Shown here in pieces: positions 1-5,606 of a stretch of 6,829 nt of DNA. The number at the start of each line of letters is the position of its first letter. Positions within the stretch are counted from its first letter, which is position 1. Made by a program: the position numbers and the translations under genes. Source of the stretch: a virus (Duplodnaviria; Heunggongvirae; Uroviricota; Caudoviricetes); IMG/VR virus record IMGVR_UViG_2778261463_000018; one strand, 5' to 3'. Under the pieces are notes generated by a model, which had not been told where the DNA came from, did not search any database, and worked only from the letters and a program-made list of their open reading frames with translations.

Positions 1-1230
1 ATGCGCAGAGCACTTAACAAACTGAGCGATACACAGCTAAGGAAAATCAACGGCACACCCGCCCAAAAAACAGCCTTTCTTAATGACGGTGGAAACCTGA
101 CCGTCAGGCATTCAACCAGCGGCCTTTTAACCTGGTATTTCACTTACAGGGCCGGAACGGGAAGGGGCGCACCACCGGAACGCATTAAGCTGGGAAATTA
201 TCCTGATCTGAGCCTGAAATCAGCCAGGGAAAAAGCCGCCCAGTGTCGCGCATGGCTGGCTGAGGGGAAAAATCCACGTCATGAGATGAATTACACCGTA
301 CAGGAAGCGTTAAAGCCTGTAACGGTTGGCGATGCGCTCACCTACTGGCTTGAGTCGTACGCAAAGGAAAACCGTGTGGATTATGACCCACTGAAAAAGC
401 GGCTAAATAATCACGTAATACAGCACATTGGCCCTATGCCGCTGGATAAATGCGAGCTACGGCACTGGCTGGCCTGTTTTGATCGGGTGGCAAAGCAAGC
501 CCCTGTTTCCGCCGGGTTCCTGCTACAGACATGCAAACAGGCGCTTAAGTTCTGCCGGAAGCGGCGCTATGCAATCAGCAACGTTCTTGATGATATGAGT
601 GTGGCTGACGTTGGGAAAAAACCGGATATAAGTCAGCGTGTCTTAAGTAACAAAGAACTTGGCGAATTATTGCAGGCACTGGACAAAAAAATATTTTCCC
701 CTTACTACGTCGCGTTAATCCGCCTCCTGATTGTTTTCGGATGCCGGACAGTAGAACTGAGGTTATCGGAGATCGGCGAGTGGGATTTTACCGAAATGCT
801 CTGGACCGTTCCGAAGGAGCACAGCAAAACGAAGGTAGCCATATTCCGGCCCATACCGGAAGCGATACTGCCGTTCGTCACGCAGCTGGTGGAGCAGAAC
901 AGGCACACGGACTTATTGCTGGGGGAAGTGAAACAGGAAACCAGCGTGTCGCAGTACGGCAGATTAGTGCACAGGAGGCTTAAACACCCTCACTGGTCAC
1001 TGCATGACATCCGGCGCACCTTTACAACGATGCTGAACGATTTAGGCGTGGATCCTCACGTCGTGGAGCAGCTTACAGGCCACCAGATGCCAGGAATGCA
1101 GCGAGTTTATAATCATTCCCGTTATCTGGATGCGAAACGCAATGCGCTGGATATGTGGGTGGAGCGGTTGGAGATACTGGCGGGAGCACATGAAAACGTA
1201 ACCACGCTACCAGTAGCCAGAAGAAAATAA
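1..1230 (+). CDS. int: Tyrosine site-specific integrase, P4/CP4-57 IntA-like (409 aa; start at window edge, may extend upstream)
   Basis: Long ORF ending TAA 1228-1230. N-terminal LSDTQLRKI...GGNLTVRHSTSG...YFTYR region typical of P4-family integrase N-terminal domains; C-terminal catalytic signature LHDIRRTF (H-x-x-R) and LTGHQ...VYNHSRY (catalytic Tyr region). Confidence 0.9.
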   Translation: MRRALNKLSDTQLRKINGTPAQKTAFLNDGGNLTVRHSTSGLLTWYFTYRAGTGRGAPPERIKLGNYPDLSLKSAREKAAQCRAWLAEGKNPRHEMNYTVQEALKPVTVGDALTYWLESYAKENRVDYDPLKKRLNNHVIQHIGPMPLDKCELRHWLACFDRVAKQAPVSAGFLLQTCKQALKFCRKRRYAISNVLDDMSVADVGKKPDISQRVLSNKELGELLQALDKKIFSPYYVALIRLLIVFGCRTVELRLSEIGEWDFTEMLWTVPKEHSKTKVAIFRPIPEAILPFVTQLVEQNRHTDLLLGEVKQETSVSQYGRLVHRRLKHPHWSLHDIRRTFTTMLNDLGVDPHVVEQLTGHQMPGMQRVYNHSRYLDAKRNALDMWVERLEILAGAHENVTTLPVARRK

Positions 1231-1604: not shown

Positions 1605-1793
1605 GTGTTAAGCACTGATCGGTTTATACGTGAAAAAGAATGCGAAAAGCTAACAGGCCTTAGCCGCTCATGCCGCTACCGCCTGGAAAAGGCCGGACAA
1701 TTCCCATCACGGCGTAAGCTGGGCGGTCGTTCCGTTGGCTGGTCTTTATCCGAAGTTCTGGCATGGAAGGAAAGCTGCGAGGCAGTTCACTAA
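1605..1793 (+). CDS. alpA: AlpA-family (phage Vis/AlpA-type) HTH transcriptional regulator / excision regulator, 62 aa, GTG start
   Basis: GTG start at 1605 with strong SD AAAGGGGG 1592-1599; sequence CEKLTGLSRSCRYRLEKAGQFPSRRKLGGRSVGWSLSEVLAWKESC fits the AlpA/Vis signature (tGlSrstiyr...FP...lg.r.vgW...ev..W); located directly downstream of int. Confidence 0.85.
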   Translation: MLSTDRFIREKECEKLTGLSRSCRYRLEKAGQFPSRRKLGGRSVGWSLSEVLAWKESCEAVH

Positions 1794-2058: not shown

Positions 2059-2086
2059 AAAGAAAAGGCCACCTGTCACGGTGGCC
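2059..2086 (-). terminator. Rho-independent terminator of the Arc-like/63-aa operon: GGCCACC-gugaca-GGUGGCC followed by UUUUCUUU
   Basis: 7-bp GC stem, 6-nt loop, U-rich tract (complement of 2059-2066), located 35 nt after the stop of the 63-aa ORF. Confidence 0.55.
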
Positions 2087-2120: not shown

Positions 2121-2312
2121 TCAGCCAGGTGGGCGGTTTTTGTTTGCTTTTAAGCGCCGAGGGTATTTCTCGACAAAAGGATCAAGGGCGAACTTATCAG
2201 GAACTTTAAGATTTTCAGTACGGGTTAATGCCTTATTTATTTCCCTGCGGGTTTTCTCACGCTGGCGCATGATAATTGATAATGCTTTATTTTGTAGTTC
2301 CTGGTTATTCAT
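2121..2312 (-). CDS. Hypothetical 63-aa highly charged (K/R/E-rich) protein co-transcribed with the Arc-like repressor
   Basis: ATG at 2312 with SD AGGTGA 5 nt upstream (the track's 66-aa version starts at an upstream GTG with no SD); 57 nt downstream of the Arc-like stop; followed by an intrinsic terminator. No recognisable motif. Confidence 0.5.
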   Translation of the reverse strand: MNNQELQNKALSIIMRQREKTRREINKALTRTENLKVPDKFALDPFVEKYPRRLKANKNRPPG

Positions 2313-2369
2313 AATTATCACCTTTAAAACAATGCGCCGCAGTACCTCACACCACGGCGCTGATAGTTT

Positions 2370-2543
2370 TTATCCTTTGGGTTCTATGCCGCGTTGCTGT
2401 AATTCTTTGCGGAGAACGCGTTTAATCCAAGTGGCTAAAGATGTGTCGCCATCGGCCTTAGCTGCTTCTTCTAGCTGCGCTCTGAAGTCTTCCGGTAATC
2501 GCATTTGGTATGGAGGCGAACGTTTTTCTAATGGTGTTGACAT
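2370..2543 (-). CDS. Arc/MetJ-type ribbon-helix-helix DNA-binding protein, 57 aa (not in ORF track, below length cutoff)
   Basis: Minus-strand ORF MSTPLEKRSPPYQMRLPEDFRAQLEEAAKADGDTSLATWIKRVLRKELQQRGIEPKG: N-terminal arm, beta-strand-like YQMRLPEDF, then two helices, matching the Arc pattern (PQFNLRWPREV...helix A...RSVNSEIYQRV). SD GAAGGG; start codon abuts a palindromic operator. Confidence 0.7.
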   Translation of the reverse strand: MSTPLEKRSPPYQMRLPEDFRAQLEEAAKADGDTSLATWIKRVLRKELQQRGIEPKG

Positions 2544-2555
2544 GGTAATTACCCT
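2542..2555. promoter_or_regulatory. Operator O1: ATGGTAATTACCcT (perfect 10-bp core palindrome GGTAATTACC 2544-2553) overlapping the SD/start codon of the Arc-like gene
   Basis: Read directly; the 14-mer ACATGGTAATTACC at 2540-2553 is repeated exactly at 2570-2583. Confidence 0.55.
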
Positions 2556-2571
2556 TCATTACTATACCTAC

Positions 2572-2585
2572 ATGGTAATTACCAT
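2572..2585. promoter_or_regulatory. Operator O2: ATGGTAATTACCAT, perfect 14-bp palindrome, centre 30 bp from O1
   Basis: Exact self-reverse-complement; three helical turns from O1, suggesting cooperative binding by a dimer/tetramer of an RHH repressor. Confidence 0.55.
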
Positions 2586-2611
2586 TGTACTTGCCATTAC
2601 ACAAAAATCAA
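2584..2611 (-). promoter_or_regulatory. Candidate sigma70 promoter of the Arc-like operon (TTGATT-N16-TACAAT on minus strand)
   Basis: -35 TTGATT (+ coords 2611-2606), 16-bp spacer, -10 TACAAT (2589-2584); -10 overlaps operator O2 and the predicted start site falls inside it, as expected for autorepression. Confidence 0.35.
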
Positions 2612-2644
2612 CGCCCCGCAGTGCTGGGAACACATACGGGGCGT
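2611..2644. promoter_or_regulatory. Stem-loop ACGCCCCG-(18 nt)-CGGGGCGT between the operator/promoter region and the first plus-strand operon gene
   Basis: 8-bp GC-rich inverted repeat read directly; on the minus strand it is followed by UGAUUUUUGUG (terminator-like insulator); on the plus strand it would sit in the operon leader. Loop is large, so uncertain. Confidence 0.25.
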
Positions 2645-2673
2645 CTAACCAACAACGTAAACTAGGAGCCGTT

Positions 2674-2871
2674 ATGGTTGCCGTAAATCATATACCACAC
2701 CTTGTACACACACAAACCGCCTTTGTGTGGCGTTTTCTGGCACTGAGTGCCGGAGAATCTCAAATTATCCACGTGACCGCCTGGACAGAACGCGAAGCGC
2801 GTAACCGTTGCCCGTCCGGTTGTGTCGCTGTATTCGCCGCCCGTATTCGTCAGGAGGTGTGCCATGATTAA
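2674..2871 (+). CDS. Hypothetical protein, 65 aa (first gene of plus-strand operon)
   Basis: ATG 2674 with strong SD AGGAG 2664-2668 (5-nt spacing); stop TAA 2869-2871 overlaps the next start. It is the only supported part of the track's 341-aa ORF. Confidence 0.5.
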   Translation: MVAVNHIPHLVHTQTAFVWRFLALSAGESQIIHVTAWTEREARNRCPSGCVAVFAARIRQEVCHD

Positions 2872-3676: not shown

Positions 3677-3910
3677 ATGCGTGATATTTACCTAGAAACA
3701 ATAGACCGCGCATTTAGTGCCATTGTTTACGCTGAAGGTATGTACGAAATATTGCAAATGTATCCAGATACATTTGGCGATAATGAGCGTGATGTAAAGA
3801 ATGCGCGGATTATTAAATCTCTGATAACTCTCCTTGAACCTGTAATAACAGAGTTGCAGGAAATAGACCTATTGCACGACAGATATAAAGAACAGCACAC
3901 CGGAGAATAA
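3677..3910 (+). CDS. Hypothetical protein, 77 aa, acidic
   Basis: ATG 3677 preceded by SD GGGTGGGG (6-nt spacing); the track's start at 3665 is a GTG inside the SD; stop TAA 3908-3910. Confidence 0.5.
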   Translation: MRDIYLETIDRAFSAIVYAEGMYEILQMYPDTFGDNERDVKNARIIKSLITLLEPVITELQEIDLLHDRYKEQHTGE

Positions 3911-3915
3911 AAATA

Positions 3916-4203
3916 ATGAAACTTAAATATTCTGGCTTAACTGCCAGTGGCAAAACTCGCACTAAATTCATGCGCGGCGATATTTACCGCGATAAGTACG
4001 GCGGCACGGTCATGATTAAGGGCGTGGAGGAACGTCGCATCACTTACCGCCGTGATGGCTACGAATATGACTGCGTGATGCCTGTTTATCAGTTCCGGCG
4101 TGATTTCACGCTGGTGGGCCATCGTAAAGCCGTTAATCAGAAACGTGCAGCAATCTATATCCGCAAAATCCGTGAAATGCTGGTCGCAGGGGGTAAAAAA
4201 TGA
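3916..4203 (+). CDS. Hypothetical basic protein, 95 aa (R/K-rich, possibly nucleic-acid binding)
   Basis: ATG 3916; stop TGA 4201-4203 overlaps the ATPase start (ATGA coupling); high Arg/Lys/Tyr content. Confidence 0.55.
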   Translation: MKLKYSGLTASGKTRTKFMRGDIYRDKYGGTVMIKGVEERRITYRRDGYEYDCVMPVYQFRRDFTLVGHRKAVNQKRAAIYIRKIREMLVAGGKK

Positions 4204-5606
4204 AACTGGCACCGAACGTAAAACTGTTACCGAAAAATAAACACACTGAGGCGGTTATTTTTGCGGGTGATAATGCTCACTCCTTTGCAGAACATTACAT
4301 GATTGCACAGGCCAAAAAAGCAGGCGATCCCATCCCTCCGGTTTACCTGGGCCGTTATCAGTTAAGCGAACTGGACAACTTACAGATTGTTGATGAAGGA
4401 CGATACAGGGCAAAGGTCATACGCGCCGGAAACCTGGACGATATGCAGATGCTGACCATTGCCACAAAACTGGCGATCGCCGGAGTCCTGGAGGCGCGGC
4501 TACTTTCTGAAAATTTCGAACTGCTGGAGGACTGGAGCGACCAGCTACCACGACTACGGGAAACATGGGAGAGAGGGGAAAGCCTGGTCATGAATGGCGG
4601 AAAGCGAAAAATCACACTTCCCATCTCATGGGGTTCTGAGGGATTCGATGCGCAGCAAAGCTACGTCATTAAGGGGCTTATTCCGGCTGAGTCATTATGC
4701 AGCACCTACGGGGCCAGCGGTTCTTATAAATCGTTCCTCGCCATTTCCTGGTCGTGCCATGTTGCCACAGGTATGGCATGGGGAGGCCGCAGGGTAAGTA
4801 AGGGTGCGGTTATCTATATCGCTGGCGAAGGCAGCATGGGCGTAAAACGCCGCGTTAAGGCGTGGGAGATAACCCACGAAAAAATGGTTACAGATTTGTG
4901 CATCATTAACGCGCCGGTATTCCCCGCATCGCCTGACTATGTGGAGCAGGTTATCAGGACTGCCGGACTTGTTAAGAGCAGAACGGGCGAAAATGTGCGG
5001 CTGATTGTGATCGACACGCTGGCCCGTTGCTTTGGTGGGAATGATGAAAATGATTCCCGTGATATGGGCGCATTTATCCAGGGGTGTGACGCGATAAAGC
5101 AGGCTACAGGGGCCACGGTGCTGGTGGTTCACCATTCCGGCAAGGATGAAACAAAGGGGGCGCGTGGTTCCAGCGCATTCCGTGCCGCGCTTGATGCAGA
5201 GTACCGAATCAGCCGGGAAAATTCAGACGTTACAGCACTGGTGGCGGCGTGTACGAAGATGAAAGACGCAGAGGAGCCAAAAGAGAGCGCATACGACCTT
5301 AAAAGCGTGGAGGTGTTTACCGATACCGATGGCGAAGAGATTGTGTCCATGGTGGTGATTGACGTTCCCCGCGCCCCTGCTGAACTGGAGCGCATAGAGG
5401 AGGCAGGCAACAAGACGGAAAACCATACCGCGCTATGGGGGTGCATCCGTTCACGCACACAGAACGGCGACAAGTGCACGATCCCGCTGTTACGTGATGA
5501 CATGAAACGGCTTGGGTATGACGTGAAAAATATGCGGCGATGGTTAGCCAAACTGGAAAAAGACGCCGTGATTTACATTGATGGTGATGATGTAGGACCA
5601 CTGTAA
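4200..5606 (+). CDS. P-loop NTPase of the RecA-like/AAA_25 (RepA/DnaB-type replicative helicase) family, 468 aa; putative island replication protein
   Basis: P-loop-like YGASGSYKS (4707-4733), Walker B-like RLIVIDTLARCF, and VLVVHHSGKD...GARGSSAF motifs characteristic of RepA/DnaB-like helicases; SD AGGGGG; immediately followed by an iteron array. Confidence 0.75.
   Translation: MKLAPNVKLLPKNKHTEAVIFAGDNAHSFAEHYMIAQAKKAGDPIPPVYLGRYQLSELDNLQIVDEGRYRAKVIRAGNLDDMQMLTIATKLAIAGVLEARLLSENFELLEDWSDQLPRLRETWERGESLVMNGGKRKITLPISWGSEGFDAQQSYVIKGLIPAESLCSTYGASGSYKSFLAISWSCHVATGMAWGGRRVSKGAVIYIAGEGSMGVKRRVKAWEITHEKMVTDLCIINAPVFPASPDYVEQVIRTAGLVKSRTGENVRLIVIDTLARCFGGNDENDSRDMGAFIQGCDAIKQATGATVLVVHHSGKDETKGARGSSAFRAALDAEYRISRENSDVTALVAACTKMKDAEEPKESAYDLKSVEVFTDTDGEEIVSMVVIDVPRAPAELERIEEAGNKTENHTALWGCIRSRTQNGDKCTIPLLRDDMKRLGYDVKNMRRWLAKLEKDAVIYIDGDDVGPL

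Follow-up and report, generated by a model that had tools for sequence, protein, structure and literature searches.

The immunity region immI of phage P22 brings together the repressors Arc and Mnt, the overlapping promoters Pant and Pmnt, and the antisense RNA sar. The Stl proteins of the Staphylococcus aureus pathogenicity islands (SaPIs) are large helix-turn-helix proteins, and Stl is released by binding proteins of the helper phage. For the phage-inducible chromosomal islands (PICIs) of Gram-negative bacteria, the founding paper called the global repressor 'unclear', and the contrast with the repressor-based Gram-positive islands 'a mystery' (PMC6092414). Later papers on PICIs, on capsid-forming PICIs (cf-PICIs) and on satellite surveys describe AlpA, Bro-type proteins and immunity RNAs; they omit the small arc-like gene studied here, or class its relatives as accessory or toxin-antitoxin (TA) genes. 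In the searchable literature, which leaves subscription-only papers outside, no repressor is described for Gram-negative PICIs. The gene lies in a stretch of 6,829 nucleotides, called the window in what follows, from the IMG/VR virus record IMGVR_UViG_2778261463_000018 (Caudoviricetes). A reading of the letters alone, made without database searches (the sequence-only reading), had proposed that the gene encodes an Arc/MetJ-type repressor that could gate the induction of the island, as Stl does in SaPIs; its remark that Gram-negative PICIs are usually described as AlpA-driven without such a repressor agrees with the founding paper.

The comparisons below make it probable that the 57-aa product of this gene is an Arc-family ribbon-helix-helix (RHH) repressor, and the protein half of a compact, swappable immunity cassette in a Gram-negative PICI or cf-PICI; its most likely role, as predicted from sequence, is that of an autoregulated repressor of the early operon. 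RHH transcriptional repressors are themselves of a known kind: what is new is the place of one in Gram-negative PICIs. A conserved RHH gene with matched, predicted operators directly on the replication-packaging promoter, in E. coli and many genera, offers a basis for satellite immunity groups, and a correction to genome annotation. Three features go beyond the sequence-only reading: the swappable cassette, a candidate antisense RNA, and a -35 element inside the coding sequence of arc. The elements of the junction are the following.

2370..2543, minus strand: arc-like gene (arc) with an ATG start, coding for a 57-aa RHH protein, the candidate repressor.
2544..2553: predicted operator O1, perfect palindrome GGTAATTACC, between the Shine-Dalgarno (SD) sequence and the ATG of arc, inside the spacer of promoter P_R.
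2572..2585: predicted operator O2, perfect 14-bp palindrome ATGGTAATTACCAT, over the start site of P_R and abutting the -10 of promoter P_L.
2537-2565, plus strand: P_R, predicted promoter of the icd-like/replication operon, with -35 TTGACA (2537-2542), a 17-bp spacer and -10 TACTAT (2560-2565); 10/12 in a consensus scan.
2611..2584, minus strand: P_L, predicted promoter of arc, with -35 TTGATT (2611..2606), a 16-bp spacer and -10 TACAAT (2589..2584); 9/12 in the same scan.
2334..2360, minus strand: terminator-like hairpin after arc, left boundary of the cassette, repeat D2.
2601..2644, minus strand: conserved hairpin (2644..2611) and U-tract (2610..2601), a terminator, right boundary of the cassette, and candidate 3' stem-loop of the antisense RNA.
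2601..2682, minus strand: candidate cis-antisense RNA of ~80 nt, with a deduced 5' end, covering the SD and AUG of the icd-like gene.
2692..2687, minus strand: candidate antisense -10 TATGAT, preceded by TGG, inside codons 5-7 of the icd-like gene.
2674-2871, plus strand: icd-like gene, first gene of the P_R operon (NCBIfam phage_ICD_like, E 5e-18; RefSeq annotation).
2121..2312, minus strand: orf63, a small basic protein of 63 aa, downstream of arc.

By analogy, P22 immI appears to be the system closest in design. Both would have a small RHH repressor (about 53-57 aa) with an N-terminal arm, an operator inside a strong promoter that overlaps an opposed one, an expected autoregulation, and a small antisense RNA, here a candidate, able to pair with the ribosome-binding site of the gene under control. 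The differences are nevertheless considerable: identity with P22 Arc is ~19% over 27 aligned columns; two separate perfect palindromes of 10-14 bp, 30 bp apart, take the place of one 21-bp operator; the operon opens with an icd-like gene, and what follows is replication and capsid genes in place of an antirepressor; and the host element is a satellite. No Ant-family hit was obtained among the window proteins scanned, the first regulated gene being icd-like.

The likeness with SaPI Stl and PICI Rpr lies in the position of the repressor, at a divergent junction beside the integration module and facing the replication-packaging operon, and, if our proposal holds, in an island kept quiescent; on the other hand, arc is here convergent with int and alpA, and induction needs an activator, AlpA. 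Scans of Pfam, NCBIfam and PHROG, which involve no direct comparison with the sequences of Stl or Rpr, returned none of the Stl/Rpr-type families. AmrZ of Pseudomonas aeruginosa (PDB 3qoq), also of the Arc family, differs more widely, being a chromosomal global regulator of 108 aa with a C-terminal oligomerisation domain, and its match scores are not significant (E 0.47 only in PDB sequence searches). Finally, the CI RNA of P4, the c4-icd region of P1 and the 'Bro zone' (PMC10111431) resemble the present locus by an RNA-based lock, here a candidate, upstream of an icd-like gene in a satellite. They differ from it in that the candidate is a simple cis-antisense RNA with two stem-loops, nearest in design to SymR. 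In a scan of the whole window against Rfam, with E up to 1, the only match is a terminator-like isrD (2061-2096), and none is to C4, isrK or int-alpA RNA.

The arc ORF is a real, conserved gene. A search with its product, MSTPLEKRSPPYQMRLPEDFRAQLEEAAKADGDTSLATWIKRVLRKELQQRGIEPKG, found 93 homologues, mostly of 56-58 aa and with 54-98% identity, in Escherichia, Salmonella, Enterobacter, Yersinia, Xenorhabdus, Photorhabdus, Pectobacterium, Pantoea, Gilliamella, Pasteurellaceae, Aeromonas, Oceanimonas and Oceanisphaera. A long ORF on the plus strand overlaps arc and shares its wobble position; variability by codon position is consequently unable to separate the two, and the openness of the frames and the proportions of synonymous (pS) and nonsynonymous (pN) differences were used instead. 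The arc frame is open in all 41 related loci, and the opposite frame in 22, with interruptions in the other 19. Among 22 arc genes of identical length, the mean pS is 0.77 and the mean pN 0.16: the gene is under purifying selection, with its length, start and stop conserved. The 57-aa ORF starting at 2543 on the minus strand, which the sequence-only reading had drawn from the letters, is thus confirmed.

Of 5,426 complete E. coli genomes, 355 carry arc together with its operator DNA, O157:H7 among them; in 50,697 phage records the family gives 4 hits, so that true phages hardly ever carry it. In the O145, O157:H7 and Shiga toxin-producing E. coli (STEC) records that were inspected, the RefSeq annotation (PGAP) places an 'Icd-like protein' pseudogene on the opposite strand and has no call for arc; beneath the match in nearly all complete-length E. 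coli hits listed, the feature is again 'Icd-like'. It is because this pseudogene call covers it that arc is left out there, and the word 'unannotated' used by the sequence-only reading holds for all these records.

The window has two exact copies of the motif GGTAATTACC and no more, at 2544-2553 and 2574-2583, with 30 bp from start to start, and the second copy extends to ATGGTAATTACCAT; in 200 dinucleotide-preserving shuffles the mean number of exact copies was 0.01, and no shuffle had two or more. O1 adjoins the start codon of arc (CAT at 2541-2543 on the plus strand), and overlaps by two bases the SD sequence AAGGG (2556..2552, minus strand). The earlier description of a start codon abutting one perfect palindrome, with a perfect 14-bp copy 30 bp away over the start site, was accurate, and gene order bears out that both lie between arc and the divergent operon that leads to the replication module. 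Their position is conserved in related islands: a palindrome starts 10-11 nt before the start codon of arc in 36 of the 44 loci scored, and a second copy, with at most two mismatches to the first, is found 27-35 bp further upstream in 33 of them. Within the 10-kb related loci, the motif is almost confined to the arc junction. Its sequence varies between clades, and O1 and O2 change together, as does the segment of the protein predicted to read the DNA:

GGTAATTACC: Escherichia, Shigella, Citrobacter, Oceanimonas, Xenorhabdus and others; protein strand ..SPQYQMRL or ..SPPYQMRL.
GGTATATACC: Photorhabdus and one Citrobacter; protein strand ..SPQFPMRL.
TGTAATTACA: Pectobacterium, Brenneria, Buttiauxella and others; protein strand ..TDQYQIRL.
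GTGTAATTACAC: Leminorella, Pantoea and Enterobacter soli; protein strand ..NPPFQFRL.

The prediction that the palindromes are operators of the arc protein is thus well supported on comparative evidence. The conservation of gene and operator pair in related islands, which the sequence-only reading had suggested examining, came out in its favour, and none of the findings that it had named as telling against it, and that can be sought in silico, turned up.

If up to two mismatches are allowed, the window has nine matches to GGTAATTACC, for 2.7 in shuffles; the seven extra sites, at 193, 2960, 3683, 3979, 5312, 5994 and 6122, are not palindromic. Some relatives (Oceanimonas, Yersinia, Serratia; for example locus L002, 4948-4959) have a third palindrome, of type GTAATTAC, ~12 bp upstream of O2, which the window does not have.

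The predicted operators are interlocked with two overlapping promoters: O1 lies inside the spacer of P_R, and O2 covers the start site of P_R, immediately downstream of the -10 of P_L. The -35 of P_R is built from codons 1-3 of arc, inside its coding sequence. All 35 loci have it as a perfect TTGACA, and most of them have a -10 with 4-5 matches out of 6 at a distance of 16-18 bp; TTGACA is kept because codon 2 of arc, for serine, is always TCA (35/35), one of six possible codons. Such a constraint at the level of DNA argues for a real P_R that is physically tied to arc and O1. On the side of P_L, hexamers of type TAnnnT, read from the sequences, stand directly upstream of O2 in most loci. Palindromic operators that overlap the promoters they regulate are characteristic of the RHH superfamily, and such is the arrangement found here, binding itself being predicted.

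Several lines of evidence are consistent with an RHH protein, each of them weak, as expected for a domain of ~45 residues. Residues 6-55 match PHROG 228, 'Arc-like repressor', with E 1.5e-6; Pfam Arc (PF03869) matches 18 of 45 family members, with a best E of 1.5e-4; and two homologues carry the NCBI label 'Arc family DNA-binding protein'. An hhalign comparison with P22 Arc (P 4e-4) aligns PPYQMRLPED on the DNA-reading strand PQFNLRWPRE, in the correct register. In the AlphaFold2 (AF2) model of the monomer (pLDDT 77), residues 18-31 and 36-50 form helices, and the N-terminus is disordered. Among the 50 best Foldseek hits in the PDB, about 45 are RHH proteins, none significant, and this result is used qualitatively only. 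The top PDB hits by sequence, for both the protein and the family profile, were the designed helical repeats DHR14, rejected as a compositional artefact of helices rich in EE and KK.

A number of observations weigh against the repressor proposal. Against Pfam Arc, with its curated cut-off of 20.4 bits, the window protein scores no more than 14.3 bits (E 0.038), and the AF2 monomer model has no beta-strand, although a disordered N-terminus should be expected of an RHH monomer modelled without its partner strand. Of the arm, beta-strand and two helices proposed by the sequence-only reading, this model has the helices but not the strand. The operator of Arc is 21 bp long, and palindromes of 10-14 bp are short beside it. 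Recognisable palindromes are missing in two related loci (L052 and L055), and one of the two in a third (L053). The correlation between protein and operator follows clades, and shared ancestry could be partly behind it; that explanation does not extend to O1 and O2 changing in concert in each clade. Lastly, the induction of the islands EcCIEDL933 and EcCICFT073 experimentally needs AlpA, and cf-PICIs make capsids without an inducing phage: repression, if any, would consequently be leaky or bypassed.

We now turn to the limits of the exchangeable unit. The cassette extends over ~2368-2605, and is bounded by two similar hairpins with the repeat CAAYGCSCCGCAGT. E. coli AR_0085 is almost identical to the window through orf63 and the left hairpin (to ~2367), and again from ~2606; between the hairpins, the two are unrelated. 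In this place, AR_0085 (locus L068, 11367-11670) has a 59-aa protein of the YlcI/YnfO family (NCBIfam NF041551), in which a strand/two-helix layout is seen by eye, and an intergenic region with its own inverted and direct repeats. A YlcI/YnfO allele also occupies this slot in the model Gram-negative PICI, EcCICFT073 (locus L072, 3974-4300), with GTGGGCCACACCT repeated around a rightward promoter (TTGACG, 17 bp, TATAGT); EcCICFT073 shares its small downstream gene with O145 and O157, where that gene accompanies the Arc allele. The two alleles thus have in common the slot, the flanking hairpins, a similar size and repeats of their own around the rightward promoter, and they differ in the sequences of the presumed operators. 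The arc protein matches the YlcI_YnfO_N model with E 0.0014 and 18.7 bits; since this is below the curated 30-bit cut-off, it is not a member of the family, and this sub-threshold match suggests that the Arc and YlcI/YnfO alleles are probably distant relatives. The searchable literature has no description of YlcI/YnfO function.

Judging from these alignments, the repressor gene travels together with its promoter-operator region, and separately from the genes around them. The immunity regions of temperate phages are likewise exchanged as units. The neighbour orf63 assorts independently of the repressor allele: it is found with either allele, and arc is found with either of two downstream genes.

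The right-hand hairpin of the cassette, with its U-tract, is conserved. Compensatory changes affect 11 of its 14 pairs, and variants give 51 G.U wobbles on the arc strand for 7 A.C, which argues that the hairpin RNA is made from the arc strand. A second conserved stem-loop, between the candidate antisense -10 and the terminator, also has compensatory changes, and its loop shows an anti-Shine-Dalgarno motif, CUCC/CCUC. As for the -10, distances were taken from the start-codon complement of the first rightward gene: a script counted a TAnnnT hexamer, whose background is 1.5% per position, 7-14 nt upstream of it on the arc strand in 24 of 28 loci; once three loci in which the CAT was 5 nt off had been re-registered by eye, it stood at exactly 10 nt in 27 of 28. 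The peptides encoded over the hexamer vary (NHI, KFT, KHT, NSN, KCT, NYT and others), and yet codon 6 always has T in its wobble position, and codon 7 always begins with A. The fold of the 84-nt minus-strand RNA has a z of -3.6, versus -1.2 for the plus-strand leader. The candidate has no match in Rfam 15; the nearest RNA match is a SymR-like hit in a relative, with 30 bits, below threshold. We thus consider this ~80-nt RNA a candidate cis-antisense RNA that would target the translation-initiation region of the icd-like gene.

In a satellite of Testudinibacter (Pasteurellaceae; locus L031), the arc-controlled promoter is closely followed by Rfam matches to isrK, C4 antisense RNA and c4-a1b1 targets (4504-4736), and an int-alpA RNA lies at 7529-7594; Rfam detects none of these in the window.

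Two other explanations concern the nature of the gene. The minus-strand ORF could be the shadow of a true gene on the plus strand, an ORF of 341 aa (1846-2871) that ends in an Icd-like domain: its frame is open over 1026 nt in the window, and over 945 nt in E. coli O145 RM9872 despite divergence with indels mid-way, and PGAP calls an 'Icd-like' pseudogene over it in O145, O157:H7 and one further STEC record. However, the wobble position that it shares with arc is the relation in which shadow ORFs are commonest, its frame is broken within arc in 19 of the 41 homologous loci where arc is always open, it crosses four hairpins and a promoter region, and in the YlcI/YnfO allele the long plus frame is not annotated as open; arc, for its part, shows purifying selection and conserved limits. 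The broken frames led us to reject the 341-aa ORF as the true gene and to regard it as the shadow, the opposite view being hardly credible. Very improbable, too, is a type II TA pair in which the protein would be an RHH antitoxin and orf63 the toxin, and in which the palindromes would serve TA autoregulation only. RHH antitoxins do autoregulate through palindromes, and some homologues of arc are named 'HicB family antitoxin' in UniRef and JGI. A 2026 survey places HicB and YlcI/YnfO among the accessory or TA genes of satellites. This pairing was rejected when none of 66 related loci proved to have a conserved adjacent toxin gene, or an orf63 homologue beside arc; in many of them a convergent alpA or int directly follows arc and leaves no space for a partner. 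The terminator-like hairpin between arc and orf63, the free association of orf63 with both repressor alleles and of arc with two downstream genes, and the location of O1 within a conserved divergent promoter whose -35 is enforced inside arc, all argue in the same direction.

If arc encodes a genuine DNA-binding regulator, there is still the question of what it regulates. It could be an RHH autoregulator of its own leftward unit (arc and orf63) and of nothing else, replication and induction being governed by AlpA alone. Both palindromes lie within the 5' region of arc, AlpA is necessary for induction, and its over-expression is sufficient to induce EcCICFT073. Of all the alternatives this is the one to be taken most seriously, and we nevertheless find it unlikely: a near-consensus P_R, preserved at the DNA level in 35 of 35 loci, holds O1 within its spacer and O2 at its start site, and the exchange of repressor and promoter-operator region as a unit would be hard to explain if P_R were not a target. 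The palindromes might, on the other hand, have another function in cis, as part of a replication origin, of a recombination site or of an RNA structure, for example, since AT-rich palindromes are also found in origins, and a small 5' hairpin could form in the rightward transcript at O2. We attach next to no probability to this possibility: the position of the palindromes is fixed relative to the start codon of arc and to both promoters, their motif is nearly exclusive to the arc junction in the 10-kb loci, varies by repressor subgroup and is replaced together with the allele, and the plus-strand leader folds no better than shuffled sequence, as its z indicates. The preferred explanation is thus that of a repressor acting on P_R as well as on its own gene.

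The remaining features of the window are the following.

1-1230, plus strand: tyrosine integrase gene (int), annotated so in the closest RefSeq relatives.
1605-1793, plus strand: alpA (Phage_AlpA, E 5e-18).
2067-2086, minus strand: clean intrinsic terminator at the end of the leftward arc-orf63 unit.
3916-4203, plus strand: DUF4222.
4200-5606, plus strand: RepA-family helicase (AAA_25, E 1.6e-42).
From 6419, plus strand: SSB.

Several small plus-strand ORFs lie between the icd-like gene and DUF4222. The order is thus int and alpA on the plus strand, orf63 and arc on the minus strand, then a rightward operon from the icd-like gene through repA to ssb: arc is divergent from the replication operon, beside the int module and convergent with int, and this junction recurs in related loci. 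The closest E. coli relatives are 92-95% identical across most of the window. In them, the island is beside roxA or allE, and the rightward genes go on to PerC, major capsid, head decoration and connector, genes that the window itself stops short of; the gene content is therefore that of a cf-PICI. Gram-negative PICIs and cf-PICIs are elements of about 10-16 kb with an att site of their own, in which int, alpA and a replication module follow one another in one orientation; the window has this succession. Since the rightward genes of most relatives are too diverged for tblastn with the window proteins, context was taken from ORF listings and from the annotation of the records. Genomes of O157:H7 have the same Arc allele at roxA, which is the position given in the literature for the cf-PICI EcCIEDL933; on the strength of that description, the O157:H7 island may be equated with it.

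The protein encoded by orf63 has no family match. In O145, O157 and CFT073, its slot is occupied by an unrelated Arg-rich protein of 57-62 aa (loci L001, 4810-4998, and L072, 3743-3916). The 341-aa plus-strand ORF, antisense to both orf63 and arc, and with counterparts in loci L001 (4598-5542) and L069 (2567-3160), is open across the diverged stretch 1846-2369 in two alleles. Four hairpins are found between alpA and the icd-like gene, at 1797-1820, 2067-2086, 2334-2360 and 2611-2644, all with T-runs on the minus strand only, and nothing in this set would obviously stop a plus-strand transcript of alpA from entering the replication operon through the cassette.

We infer DNA binding and repression, their stoichiometry, and the way in which AlpA or a helper phage would overcome the block, as follows. 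RHH dimers would occupy O1 and O2. Because O1 sits in the spacer of P_R and O2 over its start site, this occupancy would be expected to shut the operon of the icd-like gene, DUF4222, the RepA helicase and SSB, extended in close relatives to PerC and capsid; and because the same two sites lie at the ribosome-binding site and the +1 of the arc transcript, the protein would also limit its own synthesis. As a second lock, the antisense RNA would start inside the icd-like gene, end at the hairpin just upstream of the arc promoter, and pair with the ribosome-binding site of leaky rightward transcripts. AlpA would have to override the lock: one possibility, which is speculation, is read-through from the alpA promoter across the cassette, conceivable because the T-runs of the four hairpins are all on the minus strand. 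A master-switch role like that of Stl, which the sequence-only reading had in mind, is plausible but unproven, and must be reconciled with AlpA-dependent induction. In a wider conjecture, which we advance tentatively, Gram-negative PICIs and cf-PICIs, the two laboratory models EcCICFT073 and EcCIEDL933 among them, may carry an immunity module with two parts that would together lock the replication-packaging operon: a cis-antisense RNA, and a swappable RHH repressor whose Arc-like and YlcI/YnfO-like forms would each have operators of their own; AlpA would then override the lock, for example by read-through from alpA, rather than act by simple activation.

Two groups of homologues have a setting of their own. 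In Photorhabdus (loci L033-L037), the arc homologue is in two tandem copies, at about 3773-3943 and 4989-5159; in L033, the only Photorhabdus locus with ORFs listed, palindromes of type GGTATATACC stand at each copy, and two convergent ORFs come after it which, by eye, resemble a toxin-antitoxin pair of the RelE/HigB-HigA type. The best hit among phage records is OR544139, 'Pasteurella phage Pmp8' (locus L073), of 15.3 kb, with an arc homologue of 79% identity. The content of this record is cf-PICI-like, with an integrase remnant, an AlpA-like excisionase, a primase, capsid, protease, portal and terminase, and its arc homologue, labelled 'hypothetical protein', is at the same divergent junction.

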